Of a DNA stretch of 64,000 nucleotides, positions 1-50,798 are shown piece by piece (within the stretch, counting starts at the first letter, position 1; every line of letters starts with the position of its first letter). Source of the DNA: a virus; IMG/VR virus record IMGVR_UViG_3300038312_000168, positions 1-64,000 of that record. The stretch is one strand, 5' to 3'. The translations under genes and the position numbers were made by a program. The notes beneath the pieces are model-generated. The model was given only the letters and a program-made list of their open reading frames with translations, did no database searches and was not told the DNA's origin.

Positions 1-33
1 GGGTGGGATTTAAAAAAATATAATATTATATTC

Positions 34-201
34 CTTACACGTGTAAGAATCATGTAAGATGGTCATTACATGAAATGCAATTTCATAAGTACATATGTAC
101 ATTATAATATGTACATAATATCCTTACGTGTAAGGATAATTATATTATCATTACACTATCCCCTTACGTGTAATGAATATCAAAATATCATTACGTGTAA
201 T
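34..201. repeat. AT-rich block with clustered TTAC..GTAA-type palindromes
   Basis: Perfect palindromes CTTACACGTGTAAG (34-47) and GTACATATGTAC (89-100); dyads CCTTAC-gt-GTAAGG (122-135), CTTAC-gt-GTAAT (163-174), ATTAC-gt-GTAAT (190-201) plus half-sites; same motif vocabulary recurs at 15.5-15.93 kb. Confidence 0.75.
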
Positions 202-454
202 AATATCATTACACTGTCTCCTACAAGAAATGTAATACCACAAAACAACGGAATTGATAACGAAAAAAAGAAAGTGTGAATATAGTCATTATTCGCAGAT
301 TTTGAAAAAATCGATAGCACTGGCTATAGTATAATATAATATTCCTTTGCTATTTTATTTATTGTCTTTAATAGTATTTAAAGGTTTCGGTTTTATCTTC
401 AAGATAATATTACACCTTGAGTAATAGTTGTAGAAATGGGGTATGACACATATG

Positions 455-592
455 CTACAATCAAAATATTACCCTATCTCTTTATATAGAAACATACAAA
501 TTCCAGACCTATCTCTGCTAGGATGAATAAATATACCACCGTGAAAAGTAGTGTCTGAAAAGTGATGTTTTACTCGAAGAATTGAGGAGATT
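455..592 (+). repeat. copy A of five-copy ~130-140 nt intergenic element
   Basis: Ordered blocks CTACAATCAAAA / CCAGACCTATCT / ATATACC / GATGTTTTACTCGAAGAATTGAGGAGATT shared with 2415-2545, 16510-16640, 50652-50788 and inverted 39839-39975; ends 8 nt from stop of 601..810(-); internal TTTATATA at 481-488. Confidence 0.8.
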
Positions 593-1216: not shown

Positions 1217-1867
1217 ATGACAATCCTAAGTATGAAACATCGTAAGGTAATTGAAGATGAACCTACACTTGACCAGGAATCAGTTGATGCACTCAAGGCG
1301 TTTGTAGAAGAGCGTAAAGGGCCTGATATGGTGCGGATGCTGGAAGATTTAGGTTGGTTTGAATTTATCCGTCCATCGCCTTATATCTTTTTTGGGGTTT
1401 ATCATAGAGATCTTAATCCAAGCACGATTGCATTGATGTTCCGGCACATCTTCATGTATAATCCCAAGGTTCTATTCTACATTGCGCGTAGAGATATTAC
1501 TTACAAGCGTAAAGCGATTGCAAAGAGTGACCTGCTTGAAGTAATTATGGAAGAGTGCCGCGTGTGGAAATACATTTCAGGTGAACTAATCGACATTATG
1601 ATTGGTAGTGAATTTGATATCACTATTGCAGACAAAAATATTCAACTACTTCGCCCACGCTGGATGAGTAAAGAAGAGAAGAGAGATTTCAATAGACGTC
1701 TCACCGAAACACGCATAGAACTCTACGGTAAGGACACTACAAGCACCCATGATGAAGTAGATTTTGCAGATGATAGTATTAAGAATCGTGAAGTGCATGA
1801 GGTGTTTGCACTCTTTGAAGATGAGATTGAAGAGTTAAAGAAGAATCCGAAAAAAACTTTGGATTAA
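1217..1867 (+). CDS. hypothetical protein (216 aa)
   Basis: Long ORF with ATG start and upstream TATA-like box; no recognisable motifs. Confidence 0.6.
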   Translation: MTILSMKHRKVIEDEPTLDQESVDALKAFVEERKGPDMVRMLEDLGWFEFIRPSPYIFFGVYHRDLNPSTIALMFRHIFMYNPKVLFYIARRDITYKRKAIAKSDLLEVIMEECRVWKYISGELIDIMIGSEFDITIADKNIQLLRPRWMSKEEKRDFNRRLTETRIELYGKDTTSTHDEVDFADDSIKNREVHEVFALFEDEIEELKKNPKKTLD

Positions 1868-2414
1868 TACTCTTACTTTTTTAAAAAAACTTTAAAAAAA
1901 CTTTGACTTTCTGATGTGTTACCAGGAGAAAAAAAGGAGGATTAATGAGAATATTTATGAGTATCTTTAACTGTAACGATGTTATATTGTATTGGAATTA
2001 CACGAATTGACGCCAACCAAAACGTGTAATAAATCCCGAACCATGAGGAAGTGAGGCACAGCCGAATTCAAACGACAAGGAGATGCAATGACATTACGAA
2101 TCAGATTTTGTGTAATCACCTCGTAGAAAGTAGTAACATCACGGATGAACGTGTAAGAAAATTCATTGTAAGGAATTGCATGGTAAGTCATGTGAACGTT
2201 GTTCTCCGTGGTGTCCTATATCTTAAGTTGTTGCGTGAATATTTATACCTTTTGGTTTAGATACTTCTCTTACATTGAATGAAAGTTGATTTAATGTGTA
2301 AGGAAGTTATTTTGCGTTACGTGTGTCATTGTGTGTGACTATTTTCTTACGCGATACTTCTTACCCTGAATGTCATGTAGGAAACAGTAGCAGAAACCTA
2401 TGTGAGAACCCATG

Positions 2415-2545
2415 CCACAATCAAAAAAACATGCTGGAAACATGCAGTTTTGATAGGTTTTAGAGGTATAACTTGCAAAAAAGGTATAAACATACCACCG
2501 TGATAGTATAGTCGTTAATTTGCATGTTTTACTCGAAGGAAATCG
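2415..2545 (+). repeat. copy B (most diverged) of five-copy intergenic element
   Basis: CCACAATCAAAAAAAC ... AACATACCACCGTGA ... CATGTTTTACTCGAAGGAAATCG aligns block by block with copy A (AAATATACCACCGTGA ... GATGTTTTACTCGAAGAATTG). Confidence 0.65.
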
Positions 2546-2669
2546 CTTTGTTTTTCTAAACCCACAGAACTTGATTTGAATTTCAAAAACTCCCCAAATA
2601 CCCAAGAAAACGCCCAACTCGGTAAGCCACGCCACGCCTCTCCTTCTTCTCGGTGTCCATGTGTGTCCA

Positions 2670-3140
2670 CTATTGTTTATCTTTGTTCATCAATGCCCCT
2701 TTTTCGACATCAATGTATATATTTGAGCATTGATAACCAGGGATGTTCATTGATGCTAGTTTGTGGTATTTTCGCTCATATGAGTAAAAAACCATGAAAG
2801 GCATCATCTCAATAATGGGATAAAGTTTTGACTTTTTGAATACCTGGCCGTGCAACACATAACCATCTGGCCGTGCAACGTGACCGGTGATTATCACCGT
2901 ATCAGCATAGGGTAATGTGAATAACGCGCGATCATAAACGGTGATTATTCTATCCGTTTTTTGATTCGCATTCCCTTTGTTTTGTGTCTGTTTTTTTAAT
3001 CTCCATAGATTAGCCGTATTTTGTTGTTGGTTACACCCTTGTAGATTGCGTATAATCGACGATCTCACATCAGGTAGGGTAAAAGTATCACCTGTAAAAT
3101 TGATACGCTTAAAACGCTTATAATCAGGTGATAGTATCAT
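2670..3140 (-). CDS. hypothetical protein (156 aa)
   Basis: ORF track, ATG start at 3140; no recognisable motifs. Confidence 0.5.
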   Translation of the reverse strand: MILSPDYKRFKRINFTGDTFTLPDVRSSIIRNLQGCNQQQNTANLWRLKKQTQNKGNANQKTDRIITVYDRALFTLPYADTVIITGHVARPDGYVLHGQVFKKSKLYPIIEMMPFMVFYSYERKYHKLASMNIPGYQCSNIYIDVEKGALMNKDKQ

Positions 3141-3538
3141 TGTATATTAGATAGGGTTTACTTTTACTTAAAGTATAGGAATCCTTATATGTTGGTAACA
3201 TAGGTATATAAACGGAGTATAAGCGTATCAGTTAGAATCTTTTATTTTGGGTTACGTTTATCAATTCAGGGTTATCTAGGTTATTTTTCTGTTTTTCATG
3301 TGACATTTCGATAGGTATAAATACTCTTGAGTATACCTCTATGTATCCCGTGGATACCCTAGCGTGTGGATAGGGTACGACGTAAGCAGAACCGGAGCGA
3401 AAGCCTATTCCAGTCTTTTACTTACCACCATTACATTACTATGTAGGATGCGGAAAGTCTCAAACAAGAGGATAAGGTAAGTAGTGCATGTGTATCTTTA
3501 ATGCGTAATGCAAGCGGATACGCCGGTATACAAATAGT

Positions 3539-3581
3539 GTGCTCCATCGTTTTAGACGTGAGATCAAATCTAATGGAGCAC
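3539..3581 (+). promoter_or_regulatory. intercistronic hairpin module 1
   Basis: Stem GTGCTCCAT/ATGGAGCAC, 25-nt loop containing TTTTAGACGTGAGATCAAAT; followed by CCC-taaat-GGG mini-hairpin and SD GGTAAGGAAGTG of 3610 gene. Confidence 0.6.
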
Positions 3582-3609
3582 ATGCCCTAAATGGGTAAGG
3601 AAGTGTATT

Positions 3610-3801
3610 ATGGGTGATTTAGGTTACTCTGTAAAATGTTATGACTGTGGAAGAGAATTTTTATGTGGTGAGCATTTTTTTTCGTATCCGCCATCAGAAC
3701 GTGTTTGTTATCATTGTGCGTCTAAACGGCAACAATACGCTATAGACGTATCAGAGACATATACTGATGATTTAGAGCCGTGTTTACCCTACTATGATTA
3801 A
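3610..3801 (+). CDS. small zinc-ribbon protein (63 aa)
   Basis: CYDC ... CYHC cysteine pairs; ATG preceded by AAGGAAGTG SD. Confidence 0.6.
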   Translation: MGDLGYSVKCYDCGREFLCGEHFFSYPPSERVCYHCASKRQQYAIDVSETYTDDLEPCLPYYD

Positions 3802-3813
3802 AGAGGTAAGAGA

Positions 3814-4056
3814 ATGCCAAAAATGACACGTAAATCTGTTATGGTATACTACTTTGTGGTTATGAAAAATGGAGGTATCGTTAAGGAAACAGCAAAATAC
3901 ACTGTAATTGATGGAATTTATAAAGATAGGAATGTGTATGTAGGAAACAAGGGAGCTGTTAGAATTGGAAGAACAATTACAGATAGTATTTCAATCACTG
4001 ATACGTTTAATTTTGAAATTATGTTTGATATGGTCGAAAAACATAGGAATAGATAA
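3814..4056 (+). CDS. hypothetical protein (80 aa)
   Basis: ATG preceded by AGAGGTAAGAG; same-strand array. Confidence 0.55.
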   Translation: MPKMTRKSVMVYYFVVMKNGGIVKETAKYTVIDGIYKDRNVYVGNKGAVRIGRTITDSISITDTFNFEIMFDMVEKHRNR

Positions 4057-4095
4057 CCCTATCATTTTAGATGTGGCATCAATGCAAATAGGGTT
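4055..4095 (+). promoter_or_regulatory. intercistronic hairpin module 2
   Basis: Stem AACCCTAT/ATAGGGTT overlapping stop codon, loop with TTTTAGATGTGGCATCAAT, then T5 run, second hairpin CCCTACTA/TAGTAGGG running into SD GGGAGGAAGTG. Confidence 0.6.
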
Positions 4096-4135
4096 TTTAC
4101 CCTACTAGGTATTTAGTAGGGAGGAAGTGTGAAAA

Positions 4136-4564
4136 ATGGAAATCTACGAAAGGAAACTGACAACTGCTAGAGCACTCGAACAACTGGAAAAACTCTTTGT
4201 GTCGCTCAATGAGCGTTTGGAGGAGGATATAGGCAATTTTAATGGTGAGAGAGAGTTTTTTGTAGTAGTTGAACATGATAATGGTTATATGGTCGGTGAT
4301 TACAACAGAAATGACTGGAAAACTGATAGAGCAAAAATCGGATACCGTAATGGAGAGTTTTGTCTGATTTGTCACAATGCAAGTTACGACGAGCAATACC
4401 GGGATTATTTTAAGGTTGATTCCGGTGAGTTTTGGAGGATTAAAAAGATTAATTTCGCTGAAATGTTTAATGCTCTTATAATGGTAGTAGAAACGTATAA
4501 TGTGAAGTCAAAAGCAAAAGATGAAGAGATAGAGCGTTTTCTTGAAATTGCCAAACAATTTTAA
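4136..4564 (+). CDS. hypothetical protein (142 aa)
   Basis: ATG with strong SD GGGAGGAAGTG upstream. Confidence 0.6.
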   Translation: MEIYERKLTTARALEQLEKLFVSLNERLEEDIGNFNGEREFFVVVEHDNGYMVGDYNRNDWKTDRAKIGYRNGEFCLICHNASYDEQYRDYFKVDSGEFWRIKKINFAEMFNALIMVVETYNVKSKAKDEEIERFLEIAKQF

Positions 4565-4606
4565 CCCTTTTTACATCAGGTAATGAGATTCAATTCTCTA
4601 AAGGGT
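4564..4606 (+). promoter_or_regulatory. intercistronic hairpin module 3
   Basis: Stem ACCCTTT/AAAGGGT, 29-nt loop containing GAGATTCAAT; followed by CCCA-aaa-TGGG and SD TAGGAAGTG. Confidence 0.5.
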
Positions 4607-4637
4607 ATTTCCCAAAATGGGATTAGGAAGTGTTTAA

Positions 4638-5123
4638 ATGAATGTTAAAACGGTATTACATGGTATTGTAAAGCGAATAGGCGATGATCTCTATCGTAAT
4701 GAAAATGATAAAGTGGTGCATAAGACTGATGAATTTAGAGATTTGTATTTTAACGCTCATAATGGGTTTATGCCCGACGATATAATCTATGAGCATATCT
4801 ATCATATCATTTCTGAAATTGAGATGTATCTACGGTATAAAGAAGATGATTGTGACGATATAGATGATTTGATAGATGAACTAACAGAAGAGATCAACAT
4901 AGAACCTGATCAGTATACTGGTGCTTTACTTGATTGGTTATCGTCAAATCTTAACAGATACGCTATTGCTGAAGAACTATACCAACAGGATTACAAGTAT
5001 GGTTCATTGTTTGATCTTATGCAAGTAGCACAATCTACAGAGATTGAAGAGGTTAAAATGTCTATACTCAATGATTTAAGGAGTATGGTGGAAGAGGAAG
5101 AGGATAAGGAAGATGAAAGTTAA
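4638..5123 (+). CDS. hypothetical acidic protein (161 aa)
   Basis: ORF track; SD AGGAAGTG upstream; Asp/Glu-rich C-terminus. Confidence 0.6.
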   Translation: MNVKTVLHGIVKRIGDDLYRNENDKVVHKTDEFRDLYFNAHNGFMPDDIIYEHIYHIISEIEMYLRYKEDDCDDIDDLIDELTEEINIEPDQYTGALLDWLSSNLNRYAIAEELYQQDYKYGSLFDLMQVAQSTEIEEVKMSILNDLRSMVEEEEDKEDES

Positions 5124-5274
5124 AGAATTAATTAAAGAGTTACAAAATTGTAACCCTGAAAAAGACGTTATTTATATTGAAGATGGAATATATAAAATGC
5201 TTATTGTAGAAATGAAAGAATGTCGATATTATACGGTTTTATCTGGTGTTCCACTAGATGAATTTAAACCATAA
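5113..5274 (+). CDS. hypothetical small protein (53 aa, below track cutoff)
   Basis: ATG 5113 overlaps the end of the upstream gene (stop 5121-5123); uninterrupted to TAA 5272-5274, which sits at the foot of hairpin module 4. Confidence 0.45.
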   Translation: MKVKELIKELQNCNPEKDVIYIEDGIYKMLIVEMKECRYYTVLSGVPLDEFKP

Positions 5275-5320
5275 ACCCTTTAACTTTTTGAAGTTGTTAA
5301 GTTCATTACTTAAAAGGGTT
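5274..5320 (+). promoter_or_regulatory. intercistronic hairpin module 4
   Basis: Stem AACCCTTTAA/TTAAAAGGGTT (one bulge), 26-nt loop; followed by T-run, CCC-gaaa-GGG and SD GGTGAGG. Confidence 0.5.
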
Positions 5321-5345
5321 TTACCCGAAAGGGTGAGGTAAAACT

Positions 5346-5510
5346 ATGTTACACGTTCTGAAAAGCGAAAACAGAGATGTAGAAAGGTTTTTGTCGAAAT
5401 GCACGATTAGAATACCCTGCAATCATTGTTATGGTGCTGGCTGTGCTCATTGTAGTGGATTTGGGTATACACGTGAAATCATAGACTCACGTAAGGTTAT
5501 AGAGGTTTGA
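5346..5510 (+). CDS. mini-protein with DnaJ-type CxxCxGxG zinc-finger repeat (54 aa, below track cutoff)
   Basis: Translation contains CNHCYGAGCAHCSGFG (two consecutive CxxCxGxG units); SD GGTGAGG ~7 nt upstream of ATG 5346; stop TGA 5508-5510. Confidence 0.5.
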   Translation: MLHVLKSENRDVERFLSKCTIRIPCNHCYGAGCAHCSGFGYTREIIDSRKVIEV

Positions 5511-5512
5511 TT

Positions 5513-5914
5513 ATGGATTATGAACTTTTAAACGAGATCAATGATAATGATGCTAAAGAGATGGAAGAGTATAGGATAGAAGAACCAGAAAGGGATAATC
5601 CTGTAATAGAGGAAGGATGTATCTTTGATGGCGCGAGGGGTATATACATATTCTATCTTGCTGTGCGTTATGCGATTGAAAATGGGTTTAATCCCTCCGA
5701 TGAATGGAAAGAACAAGTAAAAAGAGCACAAGAGAAAGGAGAAGATGAAGAGGATTATCTTACTCATAATTATGAATGGATATTTGACGAAATGGAGAAC
5801 GCCGAAGATTGGTTAAATGCTGAAATAGCAGATGATGAGCATTATTTTGGGACTGTCCTTGATGGAACGGATTGGGGATATTGGGAAGTAGAAGAGGATT
5901 GGTTATCTATTTAA
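5513..5914 (+). CDS. hypothetical acidic protein (133 aa)
   Basis: Track start 5507 is TTG; ATG at 5513 preceded by AGAGG. Confidence 0.6.
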   Translation: MDYELLNEINDNDAKEMEEYRIEEPERDNPVIEEGCIFDGARGIYIFYLAVRYAIENGFNPSDEWKEQVKRAQEKGEDEEDYLTHNYEWIFDEMENAEDWLNAEIADDEHYFGTVLDGTDWGYWEVEEDWLSI

Positions 5915-5920
5915 ATATAC

Positions 5921-5962
5921 ACCCTTTTTCATTTTAGATGTTGGTTCAATCCAGAAAAGGGT
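5921..5962 (+). promoter_or_regulatory. intercistronic hairpin module 5
   Basis: Stem ACCCTTTT/AAAAGGGT, loop with TTTTAGATGTTGGTTCAAT; then T5, CCC-gaaa-GGG and SD GGGAGAGTG. Confidence 0.6.
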
Positions 5963-5987
5963 TTTTCCCGAAAGGGAGAGTGATTAC

Positions 5988-6380
5988 ATGGAAAAATGGG
6001 TATTTCTTACTGGAGATGTAAACTGGAAACAGTTTGGCGCTAAATGGTTTAAGATTGATAGTTATGATAATGATTATTGTTACGTCATTGAGATAATTAA
6101 TTTTGAGGATGCTACAGGAGAAAAAATCAAGGTTGATGAAGGTGAATACCGTTATGTTGGTATTCTCTATACGGTTCTCTTGGATAATGAAAGTGCTATA
6201 AAATCAGCATTATCATCATTTGGTGAAACACTAGAGGATCTTAAGGGATTAACCAAAAAACAAAGGGTAAAACGTATTGCTGAAGCAATTTCTTCTTATG
6301 GTTATCCTATGGATAGGGATGAAGAATTGTATTCTAATAATGCTGATACGCTTTTAGCAGAACTAAAGAATATGAGGTAA
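5988..6380 (+). CDS. hypothetical protein (130 aa)
   Basis: ORF track; SD GGGAGAGTG upstream. Confidence 0.6.
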   Translation: MEKWVFLTGDVNWKQFGAKWFKIDSYDNDYCYVIEIINFEDATGEKIKVDEGEYRYVGILYTVLLDNESAIKSALSSFGETLEDLKGLTKKQRVKRIAEAISSYGYPMDRDEELYSNNADTLLAELKNMR

Positions 6381-6385
6381 GTATA

Positions 6386-6805
6386 ATGGAGTTTTCAGAT
6401 ATTCTTAAAGCGTTATGGCATTCTTCCTATGCAAGTGCATTATCAGAACCGAAAGTGCATGTATTTGTAGGGAATAGTAGGCATATCAGTATTTCACCGT
6501 TCTATAATGCGAATTGTGATACGGGATTTGAAGACGAAAAGAAAATGTTACAAGGGAAATTGAGTAAGATTAACCTAAATTTGTTTAAAAACTTTCATCT
6601 ACTTTGTTTTACGGAATTACTCATTATTCCAAAGTTTAAGGCTGGAAAAGTTATTGTGATTAATGAGTATGGTGATTTCGTAAACGAGATTCACGTAAAA
6701 AACATACAGACTATTATCAGTTTTAATCCGTTAACGGTTTTCAGGGTTAAAACACGTCAAGACGTGGAATTAAAGGGTAATAATGTTAGGATGGTGAGGA
6801 AATGA
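6386..6805 (+). CDS. hypothetical protein (139 aa)
   Basis: ORF track; 5-nt gap to upstream gene, ATGA overlap with next gene. Confidence 0.55.
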   Translation: MEFSDILKALWHSSYASALSEPKVHVFVGNSRHISISPFYNANCDTGFEDEKKMLQGKLSKINLNLFKNFHLLCFTELLIIPKFKAGKVIVINEYGDFVNEIHVKNIQTIISFNPLTVFRVKTRQDVELKGNNVRMVRK

Positions 6806-7029
6806 CCTTTAAAGTTTATATTGTCGCATGGAAAAATGGAAGTAGTCAAATTGGAGTAAAATGCCTAGGTAAAAACTGGGAAAAACGTTTTGCATCAGAG
6901 ATTGATGATATTGATCAGGTTTTTGGCACTCAAATACCGCACAGAGTTATCGCTGATACTCCTGATGGATATAGGATTATGACTCCTTCAGAGGCGAAGA
7001 AAAAGGGATTTGAGTATAGATTTATTTAA
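6802..7029 (+). CDS. hypothetical protein (75 aa)
   Basis: ATGA start/stop overlap with upstream gene (translational coupling). Confidence 0.55.
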   Translation: MTFKVYIVAWKNGSSQIGVKCLGKNWEKRFASEIDDIDQVFGTQIPHRVIADTPDGYRIMTPSEAKKKGFEYRFI

Positions 7030-7100
7030 TTCTCTTTTACTTTTCATAAAGGTTAATGGGATTCATTAACCGTGAAGAAGTGCTAAGGAGATGAAGAAGA

Positions 7101-7412
7101 ATGTCGTTTGAATTGACGAATCAAGGATTTATGGCCAAAGTAGGAAATTATGAGATTGAGCATTACAGTAGTGGAGTGTTTGAAGATGATGTGAAAGTAA
7201 AGCGTAATGGAAAAGAATTGTTTACTATTGCGTTTCCCATCGTCTCACATGATTATAAAATACATCCTGTTATGATCATAGGAGATGAACATATCAATTT
7301 AGATGTTTTTGAAATGAGCAATTATCCCAACGATGATGGAATAGCTCAGGAAATGTATTACAACGAGATTTATGTGTATGTGCTGGAACAAATTATAAAG
7401 GAATTAGAATAA
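7101..7412 (+). CDS. hypothetical protein (103 aa)
   Basis: ORF track; SD TAAGGAGATG upstream. Confidence 0.55.
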   Translation: MSFELTNQGFMAKVGNYEIEHYSSGVFEDDVKVKRNGKELFTIAFPIVSHDYKIHPVMIIGDEHINLDVFEMSNYPNDDGIAQEMYYNEIYVYVLEQIIKELE

Positions 7413-7483
7413 CTTTAAAAAACTTTAATCTTTTCGTGTTGTTAAGTAGATGTGGTTAATGGGATTATTGGAGATGTGAGATT

Positions 7484-7963
7484 ATGAAGGATTACAGAGA
7501 GTTTACAGTATTTGAAAGAGAAACGATTGATGATATTTGTATCGAAATGCACAAACAACGCTTATCACGTTGTAAAATATGTGTAAATATGCATAGGTAT
7601 AACAATGTGGGATTATGGTTTAAATTTGATAATGATCCGTATTATGCATACCCTTTAACCCTTGAAAAAGCGATAGAATCATTTGTAAAAGAAATACCAA
7701 TAGAACTATTCGATTTTAATTATGATGATAGTTATCCTGATTATTCCGACGATGATATTTTTAAGGAGATTGATGAGATTCAGGAATATGAATCTGATAT
7801 GGTTTTACACAATGTAAAACAGATTCTTTATTACCTGTATATTGGTGATTTGGAAACTATCAAAACGGCACTTGATGATATTGATTATTGTTATCAAGCG
7901 GGGAAAGATTATAATGATGAATTAGAGACATTGAAAGAAATTGTAAAGGAATATACAAGTTAA
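7484..7963 (+). CDS. hypothetical acidic protein (159 aa)
   Basis: ORF track; SD GGAGATGTG upstream; last gene of + array. Confidence 0.6.
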   Translation: MKDYREFTVFERETIDDICIEMHKQRLSRCKICVNMHRYNNVGLWFKFDNDPYYAYPLTLEKAIESFVKEIPIELFDFNYDDSYPDYSDDDIFKEIDEIQEYESDMVLHNVKQILYYLYIGDLETIKTALDDIDYCYQAGKDYNDELETLKEIVKEYTS

Positions 7964-8560: not shown

Positions 8561-9183
8561 ATTGTTAGGTTATCCCTAACTATCACCATATCACCAAACA
8601 TACATGATATCTCACGATATGTATGTTGCTTATCTATCATGATCTATCATGGTTCGAGTTGCGGTAAATGGATATTCCCCGCAATTATGAGGAGATTAGA
8701 GTATTCGACAAATAGTCGATAATCCTTTGAGTATATCGAATGGATACCGCATAGATACGCAATGACGATACCAACATAGCGTCATTATCGTATCACCCTT
8801 CAGACTGCATAGAAAACAGGGCATAATGAGCAGGGATTAGAACGCTATACAATGAGGGATTGATGATAGACACAAGCAAAAATGAGATCAAGTTAATTCA
8901 GTTTTACTTTTACTCTGTCATACCCATATCACTACCCTATGAGACGTACATAGTGCGTCTACAATGCGCGCACTCACCTAGATGATATGCGAGTATCCCT
9001 ATGCTGATATGTGACAGTATAGGGTTACTGTGTGGCTATGTTGTTACCATCTCATGTATGAGATAGACCACCATTATTCACCAATGTTTGTGACCATGTA
9101 TACCTATGTGCATTGATGAACATATGTGAGCATTGATGTATTGATTCGTACATCTACGAAAAGTAGAGACCGGGGGTGCGGTT

Positions 9184-9217
9184 AGACACCTTCGGTTAAG
9201 TGTCTCAAAAATTTTTT
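9184..9217 (+). terminator. hairpin plus T-run in ORF-free region (terminator-like)
   Basis: AGACAC-cttcggttaa-GTGTCT (9184-9205) followed by caaaaaTTTTTT (T6 at 9212-9217); preceded by a G+C-rich stretch GAGACCGGGGGTGCGG. Confidence 0.3.
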
Positions 9218-9319
9218 ATAAAAAAATAACTAAATCTGGGTAAAAACCCCTAAATAAACCTATTTCTCAAAAAAGAGTTAAAACCCATTACTTCTCTATT
9301 CTTCAAAATTGCAACACTA

Positions 9320-9454
9320 TCAACAATACTCATAACGCTCTGCACATTCTGGATTTGAACACCGATACATCTTCATAATATAAACTTCTGTACCAATTTT
9401 AAACCCTTTCTTACCACAATAAACAATCAATGAACCACAACGTGAGCAATACAC
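9320..9454 (-). CDS. small zinc-ribbon protein (44 aa, below track cutoff)
   Basis: Open frame directly downstream of 9488 gene; CSRC ... CSNPEC cysteine pairs; only a GTG start (9454), SD AGGTGG is ~16 nt upstream, so weak. Confidence 0.3.
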   Translation of the reverse strand: MYCSRCGSLIVYCGKKGFKIGTEVYIMKMYRCSNPECAERYEYC

Positions 9455-14950: not shown

Positions 14951-15319
14951 TTACTCCATCTCCTCTGCAAGTTCAGCCGTTGCAAGTGCAAGCCAATCAA
15001 TGAACTCTTCCCTACACGGACAACCGTAGGTAAGGTTGGTGAAGAAGGTAGTGAATCCTTCAATCGTAATGACAAACGATTCATCACCCTGCTCAACAAG
15101 ATCCATCTCCTCCAGGCGATTCAACATAACCTGCTGTGACTCCTCGCTCTTGAACTCGTCCTCACCCGCACCAAGCATCTGCTTACACAGCACCGCATAG
15201 ATGATTGCCGCGCCCACATCTGTAGGGTAATACTGTCCCGATTCTGTGCGCTCAACGATTCCAATTCCCTCAAGGATGTCGTATCCTTCCTTTACTTCAT
15301 TGCTAACTTCGGGTGTCAT
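14951..15319 (-). CDS. acidic tandem-repeat winged-helix-like protein (122 aa), first gene of minus array
   Basis: Two repeats of the L..G.v...(d/e)..Y..T..G pattern as in 9488/9937 proteins (weaker similarity); ATG 15319. Confidence 0.5.
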   Translation of the reverse strand: MTPEVSNEVKEGYDILEGIGIVERTESGQYYPTDVGAAIIYAVLCKQMLGAGEDEFKSEESQQVMLNRLEEMDLVEQGDESFVITIEGFTTFFTNLTYGCPCREEFIDWLALATAELAEEME

Positions 15320-15499
15320 GTTTCTCTTGCACCGAATATTATGTCTACCCTTCGCTATATATGCGTTGTGTAATGCGTTTGGATTGAAAAACGAGTAAAG
15401 AAAGAAAGTTTGAGTTAATTGTAAGGTAAGTGAGTAGACTAATTTAGATTGTGGTTACTTGTAAGAAAGATGGGTCTATCCCATAAGTCATGTAAGGAC

Positions 15500-15930
15500 A
15501 TCTGCATATATATTATTAATATTATTATTACTGATTCATTACACGTAATAGAATACAAAAATAGATGTGAAATAGAATTACGTGTAAGGAGAAGAGAATA
15601 AATATATATTTACTATCATCATTACTGATTTCTTACTGAAAATAGAATACCACATCGATTTGGAATTAGGTTTGGTATGGGTTTTGGCATAAATATAATA
15701 TTTTATAATATATTTATTACATGATTCTTACATGAATATTATTACCAGTAAGAATATAGTATAATATATTATTATAATATTCTTACAAGAAATAGAATAC
15801 AAAATAGAATATCAGTAAGGATAGTAAGTATAATAATCATTATACTATTTCCTTACACTATTCTTACTGGAAATATAATAGGAATAATGATTTCATAATA
15901 TTTGTACATATATATGTACAAGTGTAAGGA
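15500..15930. repeat. second AT-rich palindrome/iteron block
   Basis: ATTAC-ac-GTAAT (15538-15549), TTAC-gt-GTAA (15578-15587), 18-bp perfect palindrome TGTACATATATATGTACA (15903-15920), many CTTAC/GTAAG half-sites, five ATAGAAT(A/T) direct repeats. Confidence 0.75.
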
Positions 15931-16255
15931 GGAGTATTAATATCATTTTAAAAGGAGCGCGAAGCGCGATTGGCGGTAGTCGAGCGTCTCAACGCGAGCG
16001 TAACCGCTGTGACAAAAAAAAAGAAAAACCGGAAAAAAGAAAATGTAATATTGTGTGGCAACTTGCCCCACGGAGGACCCCTTACCCCTTATATTTGAAA
16101 CTCATAGTATATAAAGGTTTCGGTCCATGTTGATATTTTTGGAGTGTCATATATCTTATTAGATATAAAATATATATATAATTATTACTGATAGTAATAT
16201 TGGTAATGTGTATCATGCATTTTTACCTACATTTTTCATACGTGCCGCACTGGAA

Positions 16256-16513
16256 ATGAAGGTTGAAATGACAAAAAATAAGTATTCAGTAATCAAAGTA
16301 ATACGCATGGCAGAAATGTGTCAGTATGTCTTTACGTGCGTTAAGGATGGAATTGTCGAGTATCATTACCTGTATTGCGCTGATCTTCTCGAAGCGGTCA
16401 AGAAGCATGAGATGATTTATGGGTTTGAGTATCATGTGAGGAATGTTGAAGTTCAGGAGGGAAAATCACCCGATAGGTTTCAGTCTAAAATTGAGGATTA
16501 CATCATCTCCTAG
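16256..16513 (+). CDS. hypothetical protein (85 aa)
   Basis: Track start 16208 is GTG; first ATG 16256; stop TAG lies inside block 1 of repeat copy C. Confidence 0.45.
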   Translation: MKVEMTKNKYSVIKVIRMAEMCQYVFTCVKDGIVEYHYLYCADLLEAVKKHEMIYGFEYHVRNVEVQEGKSPDRFQSKIEDYIIS

Positions 16514-16640
16514 AATCAAAAAATTTACCCCTTTCTTTATATAGAAACATGCAAAATCCGACCCTATCTTTCAAAAATGGTATAATGATATGGTTGGAGA
16601 ATGTTGGTGTTTATTTTGCATGTTTTACTCTTCAATTTGG
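16510..16640 (+). repeat. copy C of five-copy intergenic element
   Basis: CTAGAATCAAAAAATTTACCCC / TTTATATAGAAACATGCAAAATCCGACCCTATCT / CATGTTTTACTC; lies between convergent genes 16256..16513(+) and 16654..16893(-). Confidence 0.75.
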
Positions 16641-16653
16641 GCTTATCCCAAAA

Positions 16654-16893
16654 CTACCATGAGAAGAGTGCAATGAGGAACCAAATGAAACCTGATAGTG
16701 CCTCACTTGCCGCACTCAACTTCATGTTCATGGTAGCAAATGTAATAGCGAGAGTGAAGAGTCCAATTGAAGTGAAGAGCGCGGTAAAAATGTTTACAGA
16801 ACCATTGTTGAAGATACAATCGTTCAGTTGAGGAAGAAGAGTAAACGAAAAAGAGAAACCAACGATACTAATGATTTTATCTTGCCATGTCAT
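16654..16893 (-). CDS. three-helix small membrane protein (79 aa), LPQ motif in first helix
   Basis: Three hydrophobic segments; ATG start; LLPQL in helix 1 is reminiscent of PQ-loop/SemiSWEET proteins (weak). Confidence 0.5.
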   Translation of the reverse strand: MTWQDKIISIVGFSFSFTLLPQLNDCIFNNGSVNIFTALFTSIGLFTLAITFATMNMKLSAASEALSGFIWFLIALFSW

Positions 16894-16905
16894 GTTCTAT
16901 TACCA

Positions 16906-17042
16906 TTCTCCCGGCAGGACTCGAACCTGCATTACCGGATTTATTCAGAGTGTGACAGGTGTTACCGCCCGCTTCAGGTTAAATTGTGAGTTTTACCCAC
17001 ACTCTTTCAAATTCCGGCATGATACCATTACACTACGGGAGT
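16906..17042 (-). tRNA. tRNA-Gln: tRNA-Gln(UUG) with ~66-nt intron at position 37/38
   Basis: Minus-strand cloverleaf: T arm GCAGG-UUCGAGU-CCUGC, anticodon stem CCGGA/UCCGG split by an insert (about 16941-17006) with long helix GAGUGUG/CACACUC next to 3-nt bulges; loop AUUUGAA. Acceptor 6 bp plus an A1.A72 mismatch. Confidence 0.75.
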
Positions 17043-17044
17043 GA

Positions 17045-17117
17045 TGACAACGAAGGGATTTGAACCCTCACTTGACAGTTTTGGAGACTGCTGCACTTCC
17101 GATTATGCTACGTTGTC
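17045..17117 (-). tRNA. tRNA-Trp: tRNA-Trp(CCA)
   Basis: Acceptor GACAACG/CGUUGUC, D stem GCAU/GUGC, anticodon stem GCAGU/ACUGU with loop CUCCAAA, T arm GAGGG-UUCAAAU-CCCUU; no encoded CCA. Confidence 0.9.
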
Positions 17118-17120
17118 TAA

Positions 17121-17201
17121 TGTGTCAGACAGGGTTTGAACCTGTGATACCCTTCGGCAAAGGATTTTAAGTCCTCCGTGTTTCCGCTCCACCACTGACA
17201 C
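17121..17201 (-). tRNA. tRNA-Leu: tRNA-Leu(UAA), class II with long variable arm
   Basis: Acceptor GUGUCAG/CUGACAC, anticodon stem GAGGA/UCCUU with loop CUUAAAA, 14-nt variable arm, T arm ACAGG-UUCAAAC-CCUGU. Confidence 0.9.
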
Positions 17202-17303
17202 GCTATTTACTTCATTACACGTTGAACAATAAATAACTTACGTTATATTCCTGATATACAAAAGGAAGGATTTAATTAACTATAATTAAAACACATAAGA
17301 TAT

Positions 17304-17705: not shown

Positions 17706-17842
17706 CCTCAAAATACTCTTCTTTTCTTTCTTCTTTTTATACTTAACCGAAAGGTTTATATAGTAGTAATTAAATATGTATATTATATTATATCTGTTTG
17801 TTAAATAGGTATAATAAACTATACTATACTATAGTTTATTTT

Positions 17843-17850
17843 TTTATATA
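17843..17850 (+). promoter_or_regulatory. TATA-box-like element of the late structural operon
   Basis: TTTATATA; predicted TSS ~17873, leaving a leader of only ~8 nt before ATG 17881. Confidence 0.45.
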
Positions 17851-17880
17851 GAGGGGTGAATAAAAATCGTTTCTGAACGT

Positions 17881-18951
17881 ATGTTTGTGGATGGACCTGT
17901 TTTCCCAATTGCACAGAAGAATAGAAATGGATGGGGTGTTCCTCACGATTCTATTGATTCTGCTATTTCTTCGTTAAAAACATCCGTAGTTCGAATTTGC
18001 CCCTCTATTTTTGGAGAGAGCGAACATCACTGTGATATTACGGGTAGCAGGAAGGATGAAATCGGTAAAATTGTTGATGCTTACCAGAAAGATAATGAGG
18101 TAAGAGCAGTTGTTGAGATTACTGATTCTACCGCTATTTCCAAGTTGAGTGATGGAACATGGGAACCTACATGGTCTGTGTTCGGTGGTGGTGTGCGTGA
18201 TTCTGATGGTTGGATTCATGGGTATACGAATGAATCGTTAACGTTTGTTAAAAAACCTGCATGGGAAACTGCTAAAGGTGAAATATTCTTTTCTGCAAGT
18301 GAAGATGAGCGATCAGAAGTAAAGAATTTAAAATCCTATACAAAACTTGGTTTAAACCAGGATAAAGAAGATAATAGTAAATTTTATGCTTCTCTTTTAA
18401 ATTCTGATGATTTCCTTACAGATAATTCATTTTCTGACACTATTGAAACTTTAAAAGGTGATTTTATGACTGATACTAATATTGAAAACACCCCTACTGA
18501 GGGTGTTGATTTTGAGAAGGTAGTTGCCTCGAAGGAAGAGGAGATTACCAAACTTAAGGAGCAGATTAAAACGATGGAGAAGGTGCAGGCTGCTGCTATT
18601 TTCCCTGACACGTTTGAAACCGTTGTCGCTTCTCGTATTGATGTTGCACTTAAGGCAGAGCGTGAGCGCATTGAAAAGGATCTCGCCCTGACTGATTACA
18701 AGAATGTGTGTGCCTCGCTTGAGATTGCACCCGAAGTAGAGCGGTTCCAGAGTGAGAAGTTTTCCGCTTCGGATGTGCGTATGCACATTGATCTTCTGAA
18801 TAAGGTTGCAGGTAAGCGTGAGAAAGTCGAAGCGGGCGCTCCTCTGTATTCCAATACCTCCGAAAAGAAGGGTGAGACTCCTGAATCGTTCCAGAATGAA
18901 TCTGGTTGGACTGTTGGTTATTACCGTGACGGTCAGTGGTTCGCAGAGTAA
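17881..18951 (+). CDS. putative prohead protease fused to scaffold-like coiled coil (356 aa)
   Basis: Position just upstream of capsid genes; N-terminal ~150 aa with H...IGKIVDA...S pattern reminiscent of HK97-family proteases; C-terminal half charged and coiled-coil (KEEEITKLKEQIKTMEK). Confidence 0.45.
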   Translation: MFVDGPVFPIAQKNRNGWGVPHDSIDSAISSLKTSVVRICPSIFGESEHHCDITGSRKDEIGKIVDAYQKDNEVRAVVEITDSTAISKLSDGTWEPTWSVFGGGVRDSDGWIHGYTNESLTFVKKPAWETAKGEIFFSASEDERSEVKNLKSYTKLGLNQDKEDNSKFYASLLNSDDFLTDNSFSDTIETLKGDFMTDTNIENTPTEGVDFEKVVASKEEEITKLKEQIKTMEKVQAAAIFPDTFETVVASRIDVALKAERERIEKDLALTDYKNVCASLEIAPEVERFQSEKFSASDVRMHIDLLNKVAGKREKVEAGAPLYSNTSEKKGETPESFQNESGWTVGYYRDGQWFAE

Positions 18952-39820: not shown

Positions 39821-39838
39821 ATCCTCTTACCTTTTTTA

Positions 39839-39975
39839 AATCTCTTCAATTCTTTGAGTAAAACATCACTTTTCGAGCATGATGTTTTGAAGAGGTATAT
39901 TTACTCATCTGAAAAAAGATAGGGTGCGGAAACATATAGTTTTGATATGTTTCAGGGGTAATATTTTGATTCTAG
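39839..39975 (-). repeat. copy E (inverted orientation) of five-copy intergenic element
   Basis: Reverse complement reads CTAGAATCAAAATATTACCCC ... CCGCACCCTATCT ... AAATATACC ... GATGTTTTACTCAAAGAATTGAAGAGATT; starts 18 nt after stop of 39266..39820(+); the other end contains the TAG stop (39972-39974) of the convergent gene. Confidence 0.8.
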
Positions 39976-40214
39976 TTTATGGTTACTCGACCATATGAAT
40001 CAAGAATAAATCCAAGATAAGAGTTAACATTACAACAAGTATCAATTTTACCTGACTGTTTATCAATGTTGCAAATGTTACTACATATCACATGGTTTCC
40101 ATTCTCATCCACAAGTTCAAGCGTAACAAATTTATCATTGTCTACAAGATTAAAGTAGACATTCTCAACCTTACTCTTTTCCGCGTCAAAGACGCCACAA
40201 ACCTTGTAATCCAT
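39972..40214 (-). CDS. hypothetical protein (80 aa)
   Basis: Track start 40289 is TTG; first ATG at 40214. Confidence 0.45.
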   Translation of the reverse strand: MDYKVCGVFDAEKSKVENVYFNLVDNDKFVTLELVDENGNHVICSNICNIDKQSGKIDTCCNVNSYLGFILDSYGRVTIN

Positions 40215-43708: not shown

Positions 43709-43903
43709 TTACCAACATCCATAGTCTGTTAAATCGATACATTCACCACAATTTTCACATTCCGCTTTATGAACACAACCAATTCCTGTTCCAATAATGT
43801 GTAAGTGAATCGTTAATTCATATTTATTATCATCAAAACAACGCTCATGTCGAGCGATAAACTGATTGAGTTGTGCAAGTTCATTTTCGTTTAGTTCTAA
43901 CAT
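43709..43903 (-). CDS. hypothetical Cys-rich protein (64 aa)
   Basis: ATG 43903 in TAATG overlap with RNR stop (track start is GTG); C-terminal CENCGEC..C. Confidence 0.5.
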   Translation of the reverse strand: MLELNENELAQLNQFIARHERCFDDNKYELTIHLHIIGTGIGCVHKAECENCGECIDLTDYGCW

Positions 43904-46900
43904 TATCCGCACCTACTGTATCCACACGCACAAGTCTTACAACCTTCAACCATACTTAAATGTTCACCACATTCAGGACAGATATTTGATTCAGTCTTTA
44001 TTTCTTCCTTACATGGAATAGAAATTGGTTCTGATTCTTTATCAGGAATCAGACTTTCAATTACTCGACCGATAACATCCGAGCATGATTTTCCATCACA
44101 ATTACCTTCAGAGAATTTCTTGTAAGCGACAGGACAAGTAACATTACGTAAAGTCTTGATTATATCCCAGGTAGGAACATTCCAACGCATTGAAAGAGAA
44201 ATCATCTGTCCCAATGCATCATTCATAGCGGTGCAACCACCTTTGTTGTTTATAATGCATTCATAGGGTTTACCATCTTTTTCTGCAACGGAAATGATAA
44301 GTTTACCACAACCTGAACGTCTCTTACTATTTGTAGCGGGAAGATCAGATGGGCGCTTAGGTAGGATTCTACCATCGGGGAGTGGTGTTGTAGGGGTGGA
44401 ATCTTTCTTGAGTTCCATTACAATATCATCTCTGCTACCTGTTACATAAATGGTAACTCCCTTACATCCTTTCTCATAAGCGTAAAGAATAGCACTTCTA
44501 ATATCGTCTTTAGTAGCGCCTGGAGGCATGTTAATTGTCTTACTGATTGCAGCATGACAATACTGTTGAAACGCTGCCTGCATGTCAATGTGTGACTTCC
44601 AATCGATGTCAAGAGCCGTCTTGAACACAGATTTAAACTCTTTAGGCAACCATGTAATATCTTGAATAGTCCCTGTTTCGTAAGCATGATTGATTACTTC
44701 CTGCTTCTTTTTGTCCCATTGTGAAACCTCAACATGTGATTCAATGTAATTATTCAGTTTTTCTTCAAAGACTGGATCAACCATCAGGTATCCTTTCTTT
44801 TTACCATCTACCCATGTATACCGCTTGTGAACCAGGGAATAAACAGGTTCAATACCATATGAGGTTTCAGAGAGTGTTGCAATACTTCCAGTGGGTGCTA
44901 TACATGTTGTAGTTGCATTACGTATGGGTATATCATGTAGGAACCAATCAGAACCTTCATATGCTGGAAATACACCAAGTTCTTTTGCAAGTTCTCTTGA
45001 TGTTAGAACAGACATATCATTAAGAATGCCCATAACCTTTTTTGCCTGATACAGTGCATCAGAACTATCGTAAGGAATACCCATCTTCATTAGCATGTGA
45101 TGGAATCCCATGTAACCTAATCCAATCTTACGAGTCTTTCTACTCGCTTCTGCAATCTCTTCAATAGGATATTTGTTAAGATCAATAATCTTATCAAGAA
45201 ACTCTGTTGAAAGTTCAATGGTATTTATTAAATCATTTTGCATTAATCCATTATTATTAACAAAGTTAGATAAATTTATACTGCCTAGATTACATGATTC
45301 GCCTGGTAATAGTGGTTGCTCTCCGCAGTTAGAGGCCAATATGCCGTTGAAAATGCCAGTATGGTTCTTAGGCTCGTTGAAACAGTAAACCTTGTCTACA
45401 ATTTCATTGTTCCGTTCAATAGATACAATTTTAATAAACCTTTTTGCATCTCTTTTATTAGTTGTTACAGTGGGGACTCTATATGTTTTAAACCCAAGAT
45501 CAACCAATTTTTTAACATTAGATGCAGGAATTGTAAGTCTATAACAATCAAGACAATAATATTCTTTTTGACCACCATTACCATCGGGCATTAATTTATA
45601 ATCAGATTTTTTCATCAAATTAACAGAAGTATTAATACCAAGTGTATCAAGCATATATTTTACATCCATTAAAAAATCTCTTTTAACAGATGAAATAGCG
45701 ATACTACCTTCACTTGTATTTTTACATCCATCACTGTCAACAATTCCTGCTAACCATTCTAATCTTGATTTAATTGTATATGAACAATTAGGAACAAACA
45801 ATTTTTCATAATCACCCTGTAATGTAACAAGAATTCTATCGTGATCATCACTTTGATTATAATTAACACGTTTTGCATTTAAATATTCTACTAAATCTTT
45901 TTTAATTCCATATAAATATATATACTTTATACCATTTGATTGACATTTATAACCATCACCACTAAAGAAACCATGTGTATATGCAAATTCAAGTTCTTTT
46001 TTACCCTCAATAACGGGGTAATCACACTTGATAAGTTTGTCACCTACTACTAAATCCTTTGCTTCTTTTTTAACAATTTTATTTTTATTACCTTTATAAC
46101 CATATTGTAAAACAAACTTATGATAAGGAGTACATTTTACTTTGTTACCATCACTGAATGTTACTTCCATAACCTCTTGATCGTATCCAGTAACACACGG
46201 AGTAACAACACTCCATTCAAACCCATTCCAGATAGTTGTTTCTTTATCTACACACTCATCAATGCGCTTATATCCTTCATTGGTAAGAATGAGTGTTTCA
46301 CCAACCAAACACGGATTGGTTGCTTCAATATTACCAAGATGTTTGCAAGTATTATCATCATTAATTGTATTGTAGAATAATACCCCTGGTTCACCTGTCT
46401 TGGAAATTCCATCTACAATCTTATCAAAAACTTCTTTCGCTCTGATTGTTTTGTAAACTTTACCATCGAAGTGAAGATTATACTCTTTATCATTCTTTAC
46501 AGCACTAATAAATTCATCATCAATCATTACAGAAATATTGAAGTTAGAAAGATCACCTTCAGTATTCTTACACGCAATGAACTTCTCAATATCTGGATGC
46601 CAAACAGGGAGAACACCCATATTCGCACCCCTTCTTTTAGATCCCTGAACCACAGCACCAGTAGCAGCATTAAACACTTTCATGAAAGAAATGGGGCCTG
46701 ATGCAACACCATCTGTTCCATTTACTTTGTCACCTTCAGGTCGAAGATTACCAAAGGAAAATCCTGTTCCACCTGCTGCCTTATGAATTAATGCGGCATT
46801 TTTAATTGCATCAAAAATACTTTCCATTGAATCATTTACAGGAATTACAAAACATGCAGAAAGTTGTCCTATTTCCGTTCCTGCATTCATAAGTGTAGGC

Positions 46901-50651: not shown

Positions 50652-50788
50652 CTACAATCAAAAAATCATACCGGAATCATATCGTTTTCGTATGTTTCCA
50701 GACCCTATCTTTCTTTGGACGGGTGTTTATACCTTTGAAAAAGATAGGTGTCAGAAATGCACGTTTTACTCAAAGAATTGAAGAGATT
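50652..50788 (+). repeat. copy D of five-copy intergenic element
   Basis: CTACAATCAAAAAATC ... CCAGACCCTATCT ... TTTATACC ... CACGTTTTACTCAAAGAATTGAAGAGATT; ends 10 nt from polB stop; contains hairpin CCTATCTTT/AAAGATAGG. Confidence 0.8.
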
Positions 50789-50798
50789 TTATATTCCT

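Follow-up and report, generated by a model that had tools for sequence, protein, structure and literature searches.

Several described systems come close to the pair of regions considered here. In the late control of phage lambda, transcription starts at the PR′ promoter, yields the short terminated 6S RNA, and is carried through by Q. In archaea, oligo-T tracts stop or attenuate RNA polymerase, and termination needs only oligo-T. Operator arrays of cooperative small repressors are known for omega of plasmid pSM19035 and for F55 at the early promoters of SSV1. Among replication systems, P4 (ori/crr), P1 (incC/incA), and F have two clusters of sites, while oriLambda combines iterons, an A/T-rich tract, a palindrome, and transcriptional activation. 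To our knowledge, very little is known about gene timing or the start of replication in tailed viruses of methanogens. Here, we describe two regions, locus 1 and locus 2, of the IMG/VR virus record IMGVR_UViG_3300038312_000168, which is the circularly assembled genome of a 69-kb tailed archaeal virus. The window, i.e., the whole stretch of DNA that was analysed, comprises the first 64,000 bases of this 69,364-bp record, and coordinates above 64,000 are record positions.

We hold with moderate confidence that loci 1 and 2 are control regions composed of the same cis-elements, that they are not copies of each other, and that they share one putative DNA-binding factor. Read leftward, each locus would open with a gene-end element, which closes the leftward unit before it, followed by a leftward consensus promoter (at locus 2, a small conserved plus-strand gene lies between the two), by a conserved stretch of ~50–90 nt that is presumably transcribed into oligo-T tracts, by a rapidly evolving array made up of TTAC half-sites and TGTACA boxes, and by a proximal promoter with a TTACAC site overlapping its core; beyond it, a long leftward operon would begin with its first gene (Table 1). 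One sequence-specific protein, probably virus-encoded, would bind the phased half-sites cooperatively, and the sites within the core promoters would let it switch both leftward operons together, while the distal consensus promoters would yield short terminated RNAs or attenuated read-in. The finding is real and ordinary in kind. It provides a concrete and testable map with a host-type consensus promoter in four copies, a promoter/short RNA/oligo-T design, and two hypervariable arrays.

Table 1. Coordinates of the elements of loci 1 and 2 and of related features (a dot stands for features given without a strand).
Feature	Position	Strand	Remarks
Locus 1: G+C-rich hairpin island, right edge, then A7/T7 run	1..20	-	continues at record 69,203-69,251
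Locus 1: array	34..236	.	TTAC/GTAA half-site dyads, direct pair, GTAC boxes
Locus 1: palindromic dyad CTTACACGTGTAAG	34-47		in array
Locus 1: direct TTAC-N7-TTAC	43-57		in array
Locus 1: ATGAAAT-GCA-ATTTCAT dyad	70-86		in array
Locus 1: GTAC boxes	89-114		in array
Locus 1: palindrome GTACATATGTAC	89-100		in array
Locus 1: dyad TTACGTGTAA	124, 164, 191		in array
Locus 1: oligo-T tracts	263..310	-	T6 310-305, T7+T3 273-263; candidate archaeal terminators/attenuators of leftward promoter
Locus 1: conserved short segment downstream of promoter	284..352	-	putatively transcribed; predicted start near 350-355
Locus 1: consensus promoter ACCGAAACC-TTTAAATA-CT	373-391	-	TATA box 382-375; predicted to fire leftward
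Locus 1: gene-end element, copy A	455..592	+	closes leftward unit 1136->849
Locus 2: proximal promoter region of small-ORF operon	15320..15479	-	TATA box CATATATAG 15363-15355; ATTACAC 15374-15368 abutting
Locus 2: array	15480..15900	.	~94-nt units
Locus 2: TTAC-N7-TTAC	15528, 15622, 15717, 15853		in array
Locus 2: TTAC-N2-GTAA	15539, 15578, 15742		in array
Locus 2: ATAGAATW			five copies in array
Locus 2: palindromic dyad TGTACATATATATGTACA	15903..15920	.	holds 2 of the 22 GTAC sites of the genome
Locus 2: G+C-rich island	15954..16012	.	two conserved hairpins
Locus 2: oligo-T cluster T4, T6, T5, T9	16013..16049	-	tracts at 16043-16014; includes longest homopolymer of the genome
Locus 2: conserved G-rich 5′ segment	16050..16090	-	predicted transcription start near 16085-16090
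Locus 2: consensus promoter ACCGAAACC-TTTATATA-CT	16106-16124	-	TATA box 16115-16108; predicted to fire leftward
Locus 2: small conserved gene	16256..16513	+	85 aa as called; no counterpart in locus 1
Locus 2: gene-end element, copy C	16510..16640	+	closes leftward tRNA-ORF79 unit 17201->16654
Gene-end element, other copies	2417-2538		
	39823-39988	-	
	50654-50789		
Third promoter CGAAA-NN-TTTATATA	17748-17762	+	ahead of late (structural) operon
Gene block	3610-7963	+	
Gene block, small-ORF operon	15319-9488	-	long leftward operon after locus 2
Gene block	17304-39820	+	
Gene block, packaging, replication, nucleotide-metabolism genes	69147-39972	-	long leftward operon after locus 1

An earlier sequence-only reading of this DNA had noticed the same order of landmarks at both loci, and all of them are present where it placed them. 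These are the palindromes, two “A-runs” (263–273 and 16014–16043), a 19-mer (AGTATTTAAAGGTTTCGGT at 373–391, AGTATATAAAGGTTTCGGT at 16106–16124) identical at 18 of 19 positions, the element copies, each with a minus-strand gene after it, and, at locus 2, five ATAGAATW repeats inside 264 nt out of 16 in the window. The G+C-rich island, listed as an extra of locus 2, does exist there, but locus 1 has an island of its own. The proposed module boundaries hold as well: each locus is the end of one leftward transcription unit and the start of the next, with the vocabulary of cis-elements in common; the paired origins suggested alongside them are tentative. The same cannot be said of the segmental duplication that had been deduced from the shared order. 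When positions 1–700 were compared with 15480–16700 by blastn, two colinear high-scoring segment pairs were obtained, 371–391 with 16104–16124 (20/21, E 4e-5) and 434–514 with 16488–16569 (80% over 84 nt, E 8e-12), together with a marginal third match between the oligo-T pieces (264–283 with 16033–16051, 18/20). The stretches between them are unalignable, and both strong matches recur elsewhere in the genome. Because only 21 and 84 nt align significantly, a segmental duplication is not supported; the similarity is limited to short functional motifs, and what the loci have in common is the order of their signals rather than their sequence. Spacing differs between the loci, as does the order of the G+C-rich island relative to the array.

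The shorter of the two matches is a promoter. On the minus strand, the 19-mer reads ACCGAAACC-TTTAWATA-CT, that is, a purine-rich TFB-recognition element (BRE; CGAAA element) directly upstream of an 8-nt TATA box, and both loci copies have this layout, which is the one of the archaeal core promoter (“box A” TTTATATA of methanogens). The 19-mer has three matches at up to three mismatches against 0.02 expected, and CGAAANNTTTAWATA has three in the window against 0. The genome has four copies of CGAAA-NN-TTTAWATA, all intergenic; the two outside the loci, at 17755 (+) and 67754 (−), point toward the genes that come next. Exact copies of the 19-mer are present in 24 IMG/VR viral contigs, where their flanks are unrelated, and in 102 stretches of genomes. 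These stretches are nearly all archaeal and come from Methanobrevibacter, Methanobacterium, Methanosarcinales, Woesearchaeota, Nanoarchaeota, Theionarchaea, and Thermococci. Among its 95 usable occurrences, an open reading frame (ORF) of at least 60 aa starts 15–120 nt downstream in 64% of cases versus 20% in the opposite direction; several ORF starts lie 19–22 nt from the 19-mer, which suggests leaderless mRNAs.

To judge from these occurrences, the 19-mer is a generic pan-archaeal BRE/TATA promoter, and its similarity between the loci appears to be convergence on a consensus. Both loci copies are read as leftward because genes follow the 19-mer that way in other occurrences, which reverses the rightward orientation implied for the TATA motif by the sequence-only reading. 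The two loci copies differ from other archaeal core promoters in what they face: there is no gene within 400 nt downstream, and a conserved non-coding stretch, oligo-T tracts, and a repeat array are found there. A 61.9-kb rumen contig (L109, CADAMI010000001.1) bears the label of an Erysipelotrichaceae metagenome-assembled genome (MAG), yet it resembles an archaeal plasmid or virus that ended up in a bacterial bin; its positions 1392–4448 (reverse strand) contain six cassettes of the promoter plus an identical leader (ATGAAAAACATATATAATATATAG...) before genes. The leader of the late operon in the window (17748–17881, +) bears a near-palindrome (hairpin) AAACTATACTATACTATAGTTT and then a T7 run (17839–17845) after the promoter.

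With leftward promoters, the “A-runs” become oligo-T tracts of the transcribed strand, and runs of at least five T on the sense strand, as in archaeal terminators, are present at both loci. The DNA between promoter and oligo-T is well conserved. At locus 1, the promoter and ~90 nt after it are near-identical in four relatives (L014, L020, L035, and L036) despite a two-fold difference in array length. In a locus-2 alignment of four genomes, the fraction of invariant columns is 0.95 for the BRE/TATA, 0.84 for both the 5′ segment and the oligo-T tracts, and 0.75 for the neighbouring gene ORF85, against 0.21 for the array. The 5′ segment contains a dyad (hairpin) at 16071–16053, GTGGGGCA-NGT-TGCC(A/C/T)CAC, also given as GTGGGGCA-NGT-TGCCCCAC; its metagenome variants include a paired GG/CC deletion (L170 and L175) and a G·U-compatible change (L163). 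The promoter-then-oligo-T pattern is repeated at three of the four consensus promoters of this genome. The resemblance to lambda late control and to attenuators lies in a strong, seemingly constitutive promoter, a terminator-like signal after 50–90 nt, and a long operon. Unlike in lambda, no antiterminator was found here, termination in archaea would need nothing besides oligo-T, and the terminated RNA is a predicted one. A comparison of the two putative short RNAs with the genome gave no convincing antisense target; all it brought up was the 18/20 match of the two oligo-T pieces with each other.

The arrays are the most variable parts of the loci. In relatives, the locus-1 array ranges from 250 to ~530 nt with tandem expansions of GTAC boxes, and the locus-2 array shows unit-sized insertions and deletions. 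Two motif classes, TATGTACA and TC[ACT]TTACA(C), are nevertheless found in both loci of all relatives examined. Direct TTAC repeats peak at a spacing of 11 bp, one helical turn (26 cases in seven arrays), and inverted ones at TTAC-N2-GTAA (11 cases). Both spacings are enriched in the window: TTACRYGTAA occurs 8 times against 0.45 expected (18-fold), with five of the eight in the loci, and TTAC-N7-TTAC occurs 18 times against 3.2 expected (>5-fold), five of them in the two arrays. In addition, an identical 16-mer, TTACATGATTCTTAC, is present in both loci in opposite orientation. By its geometry, such spacing is a signature of cooperative protein binding on one helix face, though the binding itself is predicted. 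The omega heptad arrays of pSM19035 and the F55 tandem sites of the SSV1 early promoters likewise consist of short direct or inverted sub-sites in variable number, placed both upstream of several promoters of one element and within them, while the arrays described here are much longer (250–600 nt) and contain larger dyads as well as TGTACA as a further motif class.

The best argument for a function of the putative factor comes from outside the arrays. It is expected to be a transcription regulator of both operons because TTACAC-type sites stand inside core promoters; such sites are found in leftward units at 69162 and 15374, before the tRNA unit, and before genes 53123, 47393, and 14415, and the first two are conserved in relatives. 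In front of the first gene after locus 1 (69147), the TATA box and the ATG, which are 23 nt apart, flank CTTACAC at 69162; this spacing suggests that the mRNA may be leaderless. In the locus-2 proximal promoter, GCATTACACAAC is invariant in four genomes.

A second peculiarity of the arrays is their content of GTAC. The genome has only 22 GTAC sites against 303 expected, i.e., a ~14-fold purge, and AGCT is reduced similarly (4 against 94 expected). The same purge is seen in the relatives and in none of the sampled Methanobrevibacter and Methanobacterium loci. The surviving GTAC sites are concentrated in the two arrays and in an ORF-free region (8946–9390): six of the 22 lie in the two loci, among them those at 89, 97, 111, 15904, and 15916, and all five copies of ATATGTAC in the genome are in the two loci. 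In the locus-1 arrays of three relatives, there are 27, 13, and 19 GTAC sites versus 1, 2, and 0 in the flanks, the 27 being within one 555-nt array. GTAC boxes appear to be needed in the loci because they are retained, and even amplified, despite the purge elsewhere. The genome-wide loss of GTAC, set against the dense boxes of the arrays, singles these sites out as functionally required; they may be shielded by methylation or by a protein bound to them.

Several observations weigh against the proposed pair of control regions. Downstream of the late promoter at 17755, transcription has to pass the T7 run, given that the second TATA box of the window is lacking in relatives; oligo-T may therefore terminate inefficiently, and the oligo-T tracts of this virus may attenuate rather than stop transcription. 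Sense-strand T-runs inside the operons are not depleted, a result that is uninformative on terminator use. Arrays of 10–25 sites over 250–600 nt are larger than ordinary operators and resemble iteron clusters, and the least stable DNA and the mini-hairpin-type GC hairpins at locus 2 would fit an origin at least as well. Moreover, the relatives are close (82–95% identity), so that motif counts across them are not independent. As for the factor itself, DNA-binding proteins are hinted at by just two of the small ORFs, gp9937-10305 (−), with a sub-threshold match to a winged-helix family (HTH_45, E 2.8e-4), and gp14951-15319 (−), the first gene after the locus-2 array, with a weaker sub-threshold match to the same family (E 1.6e-3). 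The structural model of the latter (predicted local distance difference test, pLDDT, 86) has no significant fold match, its top weak matches being winged-helix repressors (E >=0.15).

A serious, if tentative, alternative is that the arrays are the iteron clusters of a replication system. Transcription starting at the consensus promoter would activate or prime an iteron-type origin at locus 2, possibly together with locus 1; the other cluster would then be a cis partner or control locus, and the GC hairpins would be single-strand initiation signals. Direct half-sites phased at 11 bp, accompanied by inverted versions and changing in copy number among relatives, are what iterons would look like, and an easily unwound A/T-rich element is adjacent to these helically phased repeats. 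The least stable 100 bp of the genome, 15689–15788, lies inside the locus-2 array (−95.3 versus a mean of −125.2 kcal/mol), and locus 2 accounts for three of the seven least stable windows; promoter regions, however, are equally expected to be AT-rich and easy to melt. A strongly purine-asymmetric A-tract adjoins the conserved GC hairpins, and a strong promoter fires into the region, recalling the origins of T4 (oriF/oriG), T7, and lambda. The genome has two clusters, and both are situated where gene orientation diverges. The virus also has its own replisome, which includes PolB, a clamp loader, a helicase-primase-like protein with DUF3987, and recombination genes. Against an origin, no initiator gene (Rep, Orc1, or Cdc6) was found, the host-type mini-origin recognition box (mini-ORB, see below) is absent, and the TTACAC sites in several core promoters are more simply explained as operators. 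The DUF3987 protein, for which a sequence search of the PDB found nothing, and gp14951-15319 are both unassigned. GC skew gives no independent signal; it tracks gene strand and was rejected as an origin indicator because of this confounding.

The likeness to P4, P1, F, and oriLambda consists in phased direct and inverted half-sites, two clusters, easily melted DNA and GC hairpins nearby, and a promoter pointing inward. In contrast to these systems, the half-site here is only 4–8 nt long, the spacing is irregular beyond the 11-bp pairs, and no initiator was identified. Origin and control functions are compatible and not exclusive. In a combined version, which we consider rather doubtful, locus 2 with locus 1 as its partner would be a transcription-activated iteron origin, in which the promoter drives transcription into a G-rich hairpin, an A/T tract, and plus-strand mini-hairpin priming signals, a viral initiator binds the phased TTAC sites of both clusters and represses both operons, and the GTAC boxes are part of the machinery.

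The priming signals just mentioned are located in the G+C-rich islands. At locus 2, hairpin a has a GCGC stem with a plus-strand G(N)A or GNNA loop (GCGAAGC at 15959–15965); in relatives, the stem is kept and the loop is GAA, GTA, or GTAA. Hairpin b has an outer stem, GCRGT/ACYGC, around a small GC hairpin, and this outer stem covaries (GCGGT/ACCGC versus GCAGT/ACTGC). An RNA consensus fold of the locus-2 core contains one fully covarying pair (91–121, A-U versus G-C); since the relatives are close, covariation is thin. This predicted fold cannot tell RNA from single-stranded DNA, nor one strand from the other. A coding reading of the island together with the A-run, which form an open frame without a start codon, was rejected: homopolymer lengths and 1-nt insertions or deletions differ among relatives. 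At locus 1, the island comprises the hairpins CCCCCGC-AGG-GCGGGGG and GGCC-GAA-GGCC and is the most G+C-rich 40-mer of the genome. It is present only in the window and in L020 (hairpin GCGC-GAA-GCGC), where GCGAAGC replaces the CCGAAGG of the window, a compensated stem change. Because the island is absent in three other relatives (L014, L035, and L036), it is non-obligatory, which speaks against an origin function.

According to a review (PMC13037366), mini-hairpins of the class GCGNAGC/GCGNNAGC are located at the priming sites of phages G4 and St-1 and at RSF1010 ssiA (motif CCGAAGG). The C-G closing pair and the G...A loop that define the class (PMC13037366) are found in GCGAAGC at 15959 and CCGAAGG at 69238. 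The plus-strand loops GAA, GTA, and GTAA and the locus-1 CCGAAGG fit this class and favour an origin, and the relatives, with variants such as GCGTAGC and GCGTAAGC, differ from one another only at N positions. However, chance alone would give about one copy of each motif in such a genome, the loops would be stable in RNA as well, and a function as single-stranded DNA is putative.

Rather improbable is the idea that locus 1 is a packaging recognition or cleavage region of the pac or cos type, with the GTAC/TGTACA boxes as sites for terminase or an accessory protein, on the model of the clustered hexamers in the pac site of phage P1. Downstream of locus 1, at a distance of ~1.5–2 kb, come a candidate small terminase gene and the block with the portal and intein-bearing large terminase genes; in relatives, the GTAC boxes are concentrated at locus 1, as described above, and the record begins within it. 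The first 113 bases of the record are repeated at its end, and locus 1 runs on leftward across base 1 into 69,148–69,251. On the window map, the contigs of relatives G002 and G001 break at ~17.7 and ~43.3 kb, respectively, while the G003 contig crosses the record junction and locus 1 uninterrupted. By this comparison, the window start is an arbitrary assembly cut and no genome end, because the other contigs break elsewhere and G003 crosses the junction. For the same inconsistency between records, contig ends were rejected as physical termini. Furthermore, locus 2, remote from the terminase genes, has the same boxes, and locus 1 is seven small genes away from the candidate small terminase gene. 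Four of the proteins encoded in this interval (record 67811–68449, −) are tandem paralogues of 45–55 aa, all beginning with MKV(G/K/Y)ELIEKL. The large terminase gene itself (record 64676–67198; L027:2677-5199, −) is split by an intein with a LAGLIDADG endonuclease.

Quite unlikely, in view of the alignments above, is the original proposal that a single regulatory module was duplicated to give both loci, at which the 15 kb between them could be deleted or inverted. The colinear landmarks, the matching oligo-T pieces, and the core CTTTATATAGAAACATRCAAA, which element copies A and C share to the exclusion of the other three, would agree with it. On the other side, the 19-mer is a generic consensus of unrelated archaea and viruses, the 3′ half of copy A is nearest to a copy at 39.8 kb, and the shared 16-mer is oppositely oriented in the loci. 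As for recombination, two near-complete relatives (G001 and G002) keep the loci in the same order and orientation ~15 kb apart, and the comparison with three relatives (G003 crosses locus 1) revealed no inversion or deletion.

The last possibility, that the arrays mimic host origin recognition boxes to recruit host Orc1/Cdc6, is very improbable: the mini-ORB TTACACTTGAAAT has TTACAC(TTG) in common with sites of the virus, for example CCTTACACTTGTACA, but no copy of it at up to one mismatch exists in the window, its 87 matches at up to three mismatches (52 expected) are scattered without clustering in the loci, and its TTGAAAT half is missing from the arrays, so that the mimicry was rejected at the sequence level. 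The mini-ORB was derived from the cdc6 flanks of four host-like genomes. In these genomes (L148-L151, Methanobrevibacter MAGs and Methanobacterium ferruginis), the intergenic region adjacent to cdc6/orc1 contains 3–6 copies of TTACACTTGAAAT, which is presumed to be the origin recognition box of these methanogens.

The longer of the two colinear matches, 84 nt, belongs to a dispersed gene-end element with five copies. Copies A and C alone carry the TATA-bearing core CTTTATATAGAAACATRCAAA, and the other three hold a hairpin, GAAACATAT...ATATGTTTC, in its place. Because A and C share the core while the best match of the 3′ half of A is the 39.8-kb copy and not copy C, the gene-end copies are mosaics. 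The small gene next to copy C (16256–16513), which the sequence-only reading had called, is real: most substitutions in relatives affect the third position of a codon. In several relatives, an in-frame stop interrupts the N-terminal extension while the rest is conserved, and translation probably begins at an internal Met near 16307. No family match was found for this gene.

Loci 1 and 2 are the two points of diverging gene orientation in the genome. Its tailed-virus genes include those for a major capsid protein, a tape-measure protein, and the intein-bearing large terminase (TerL), and it also encodes PolB, a clamp loader, an intein-bearing ribonucleotide reductase (43903–47064), two DNA methyltransferases, the DUF3987 helicase-primase-like protein, and recombination proteins; the ORFs at 68777–69147 are of the Zn-ribbon type. 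An archaeal host is indicated by an intron-bearing tRNA, the archaeal-type promoters, and the taxa sharing the promoter. A blastn search of a phage database gave no match for locus 2. Rfam 15 covariance models applied to 15300–17300 detected three tRNAs only, at gathering or E-value thresholds, and found no credible match in the locus-1 homologue. The third of these tRNAs (16906–17042, −; 137 nt) was found by Rfam and missed by ARAGORN, and its length implies an intron of ~65 nt. The virus group is common in anaerobic digesters, one small gene matching 84 protein clusters, so that experimental material exists.

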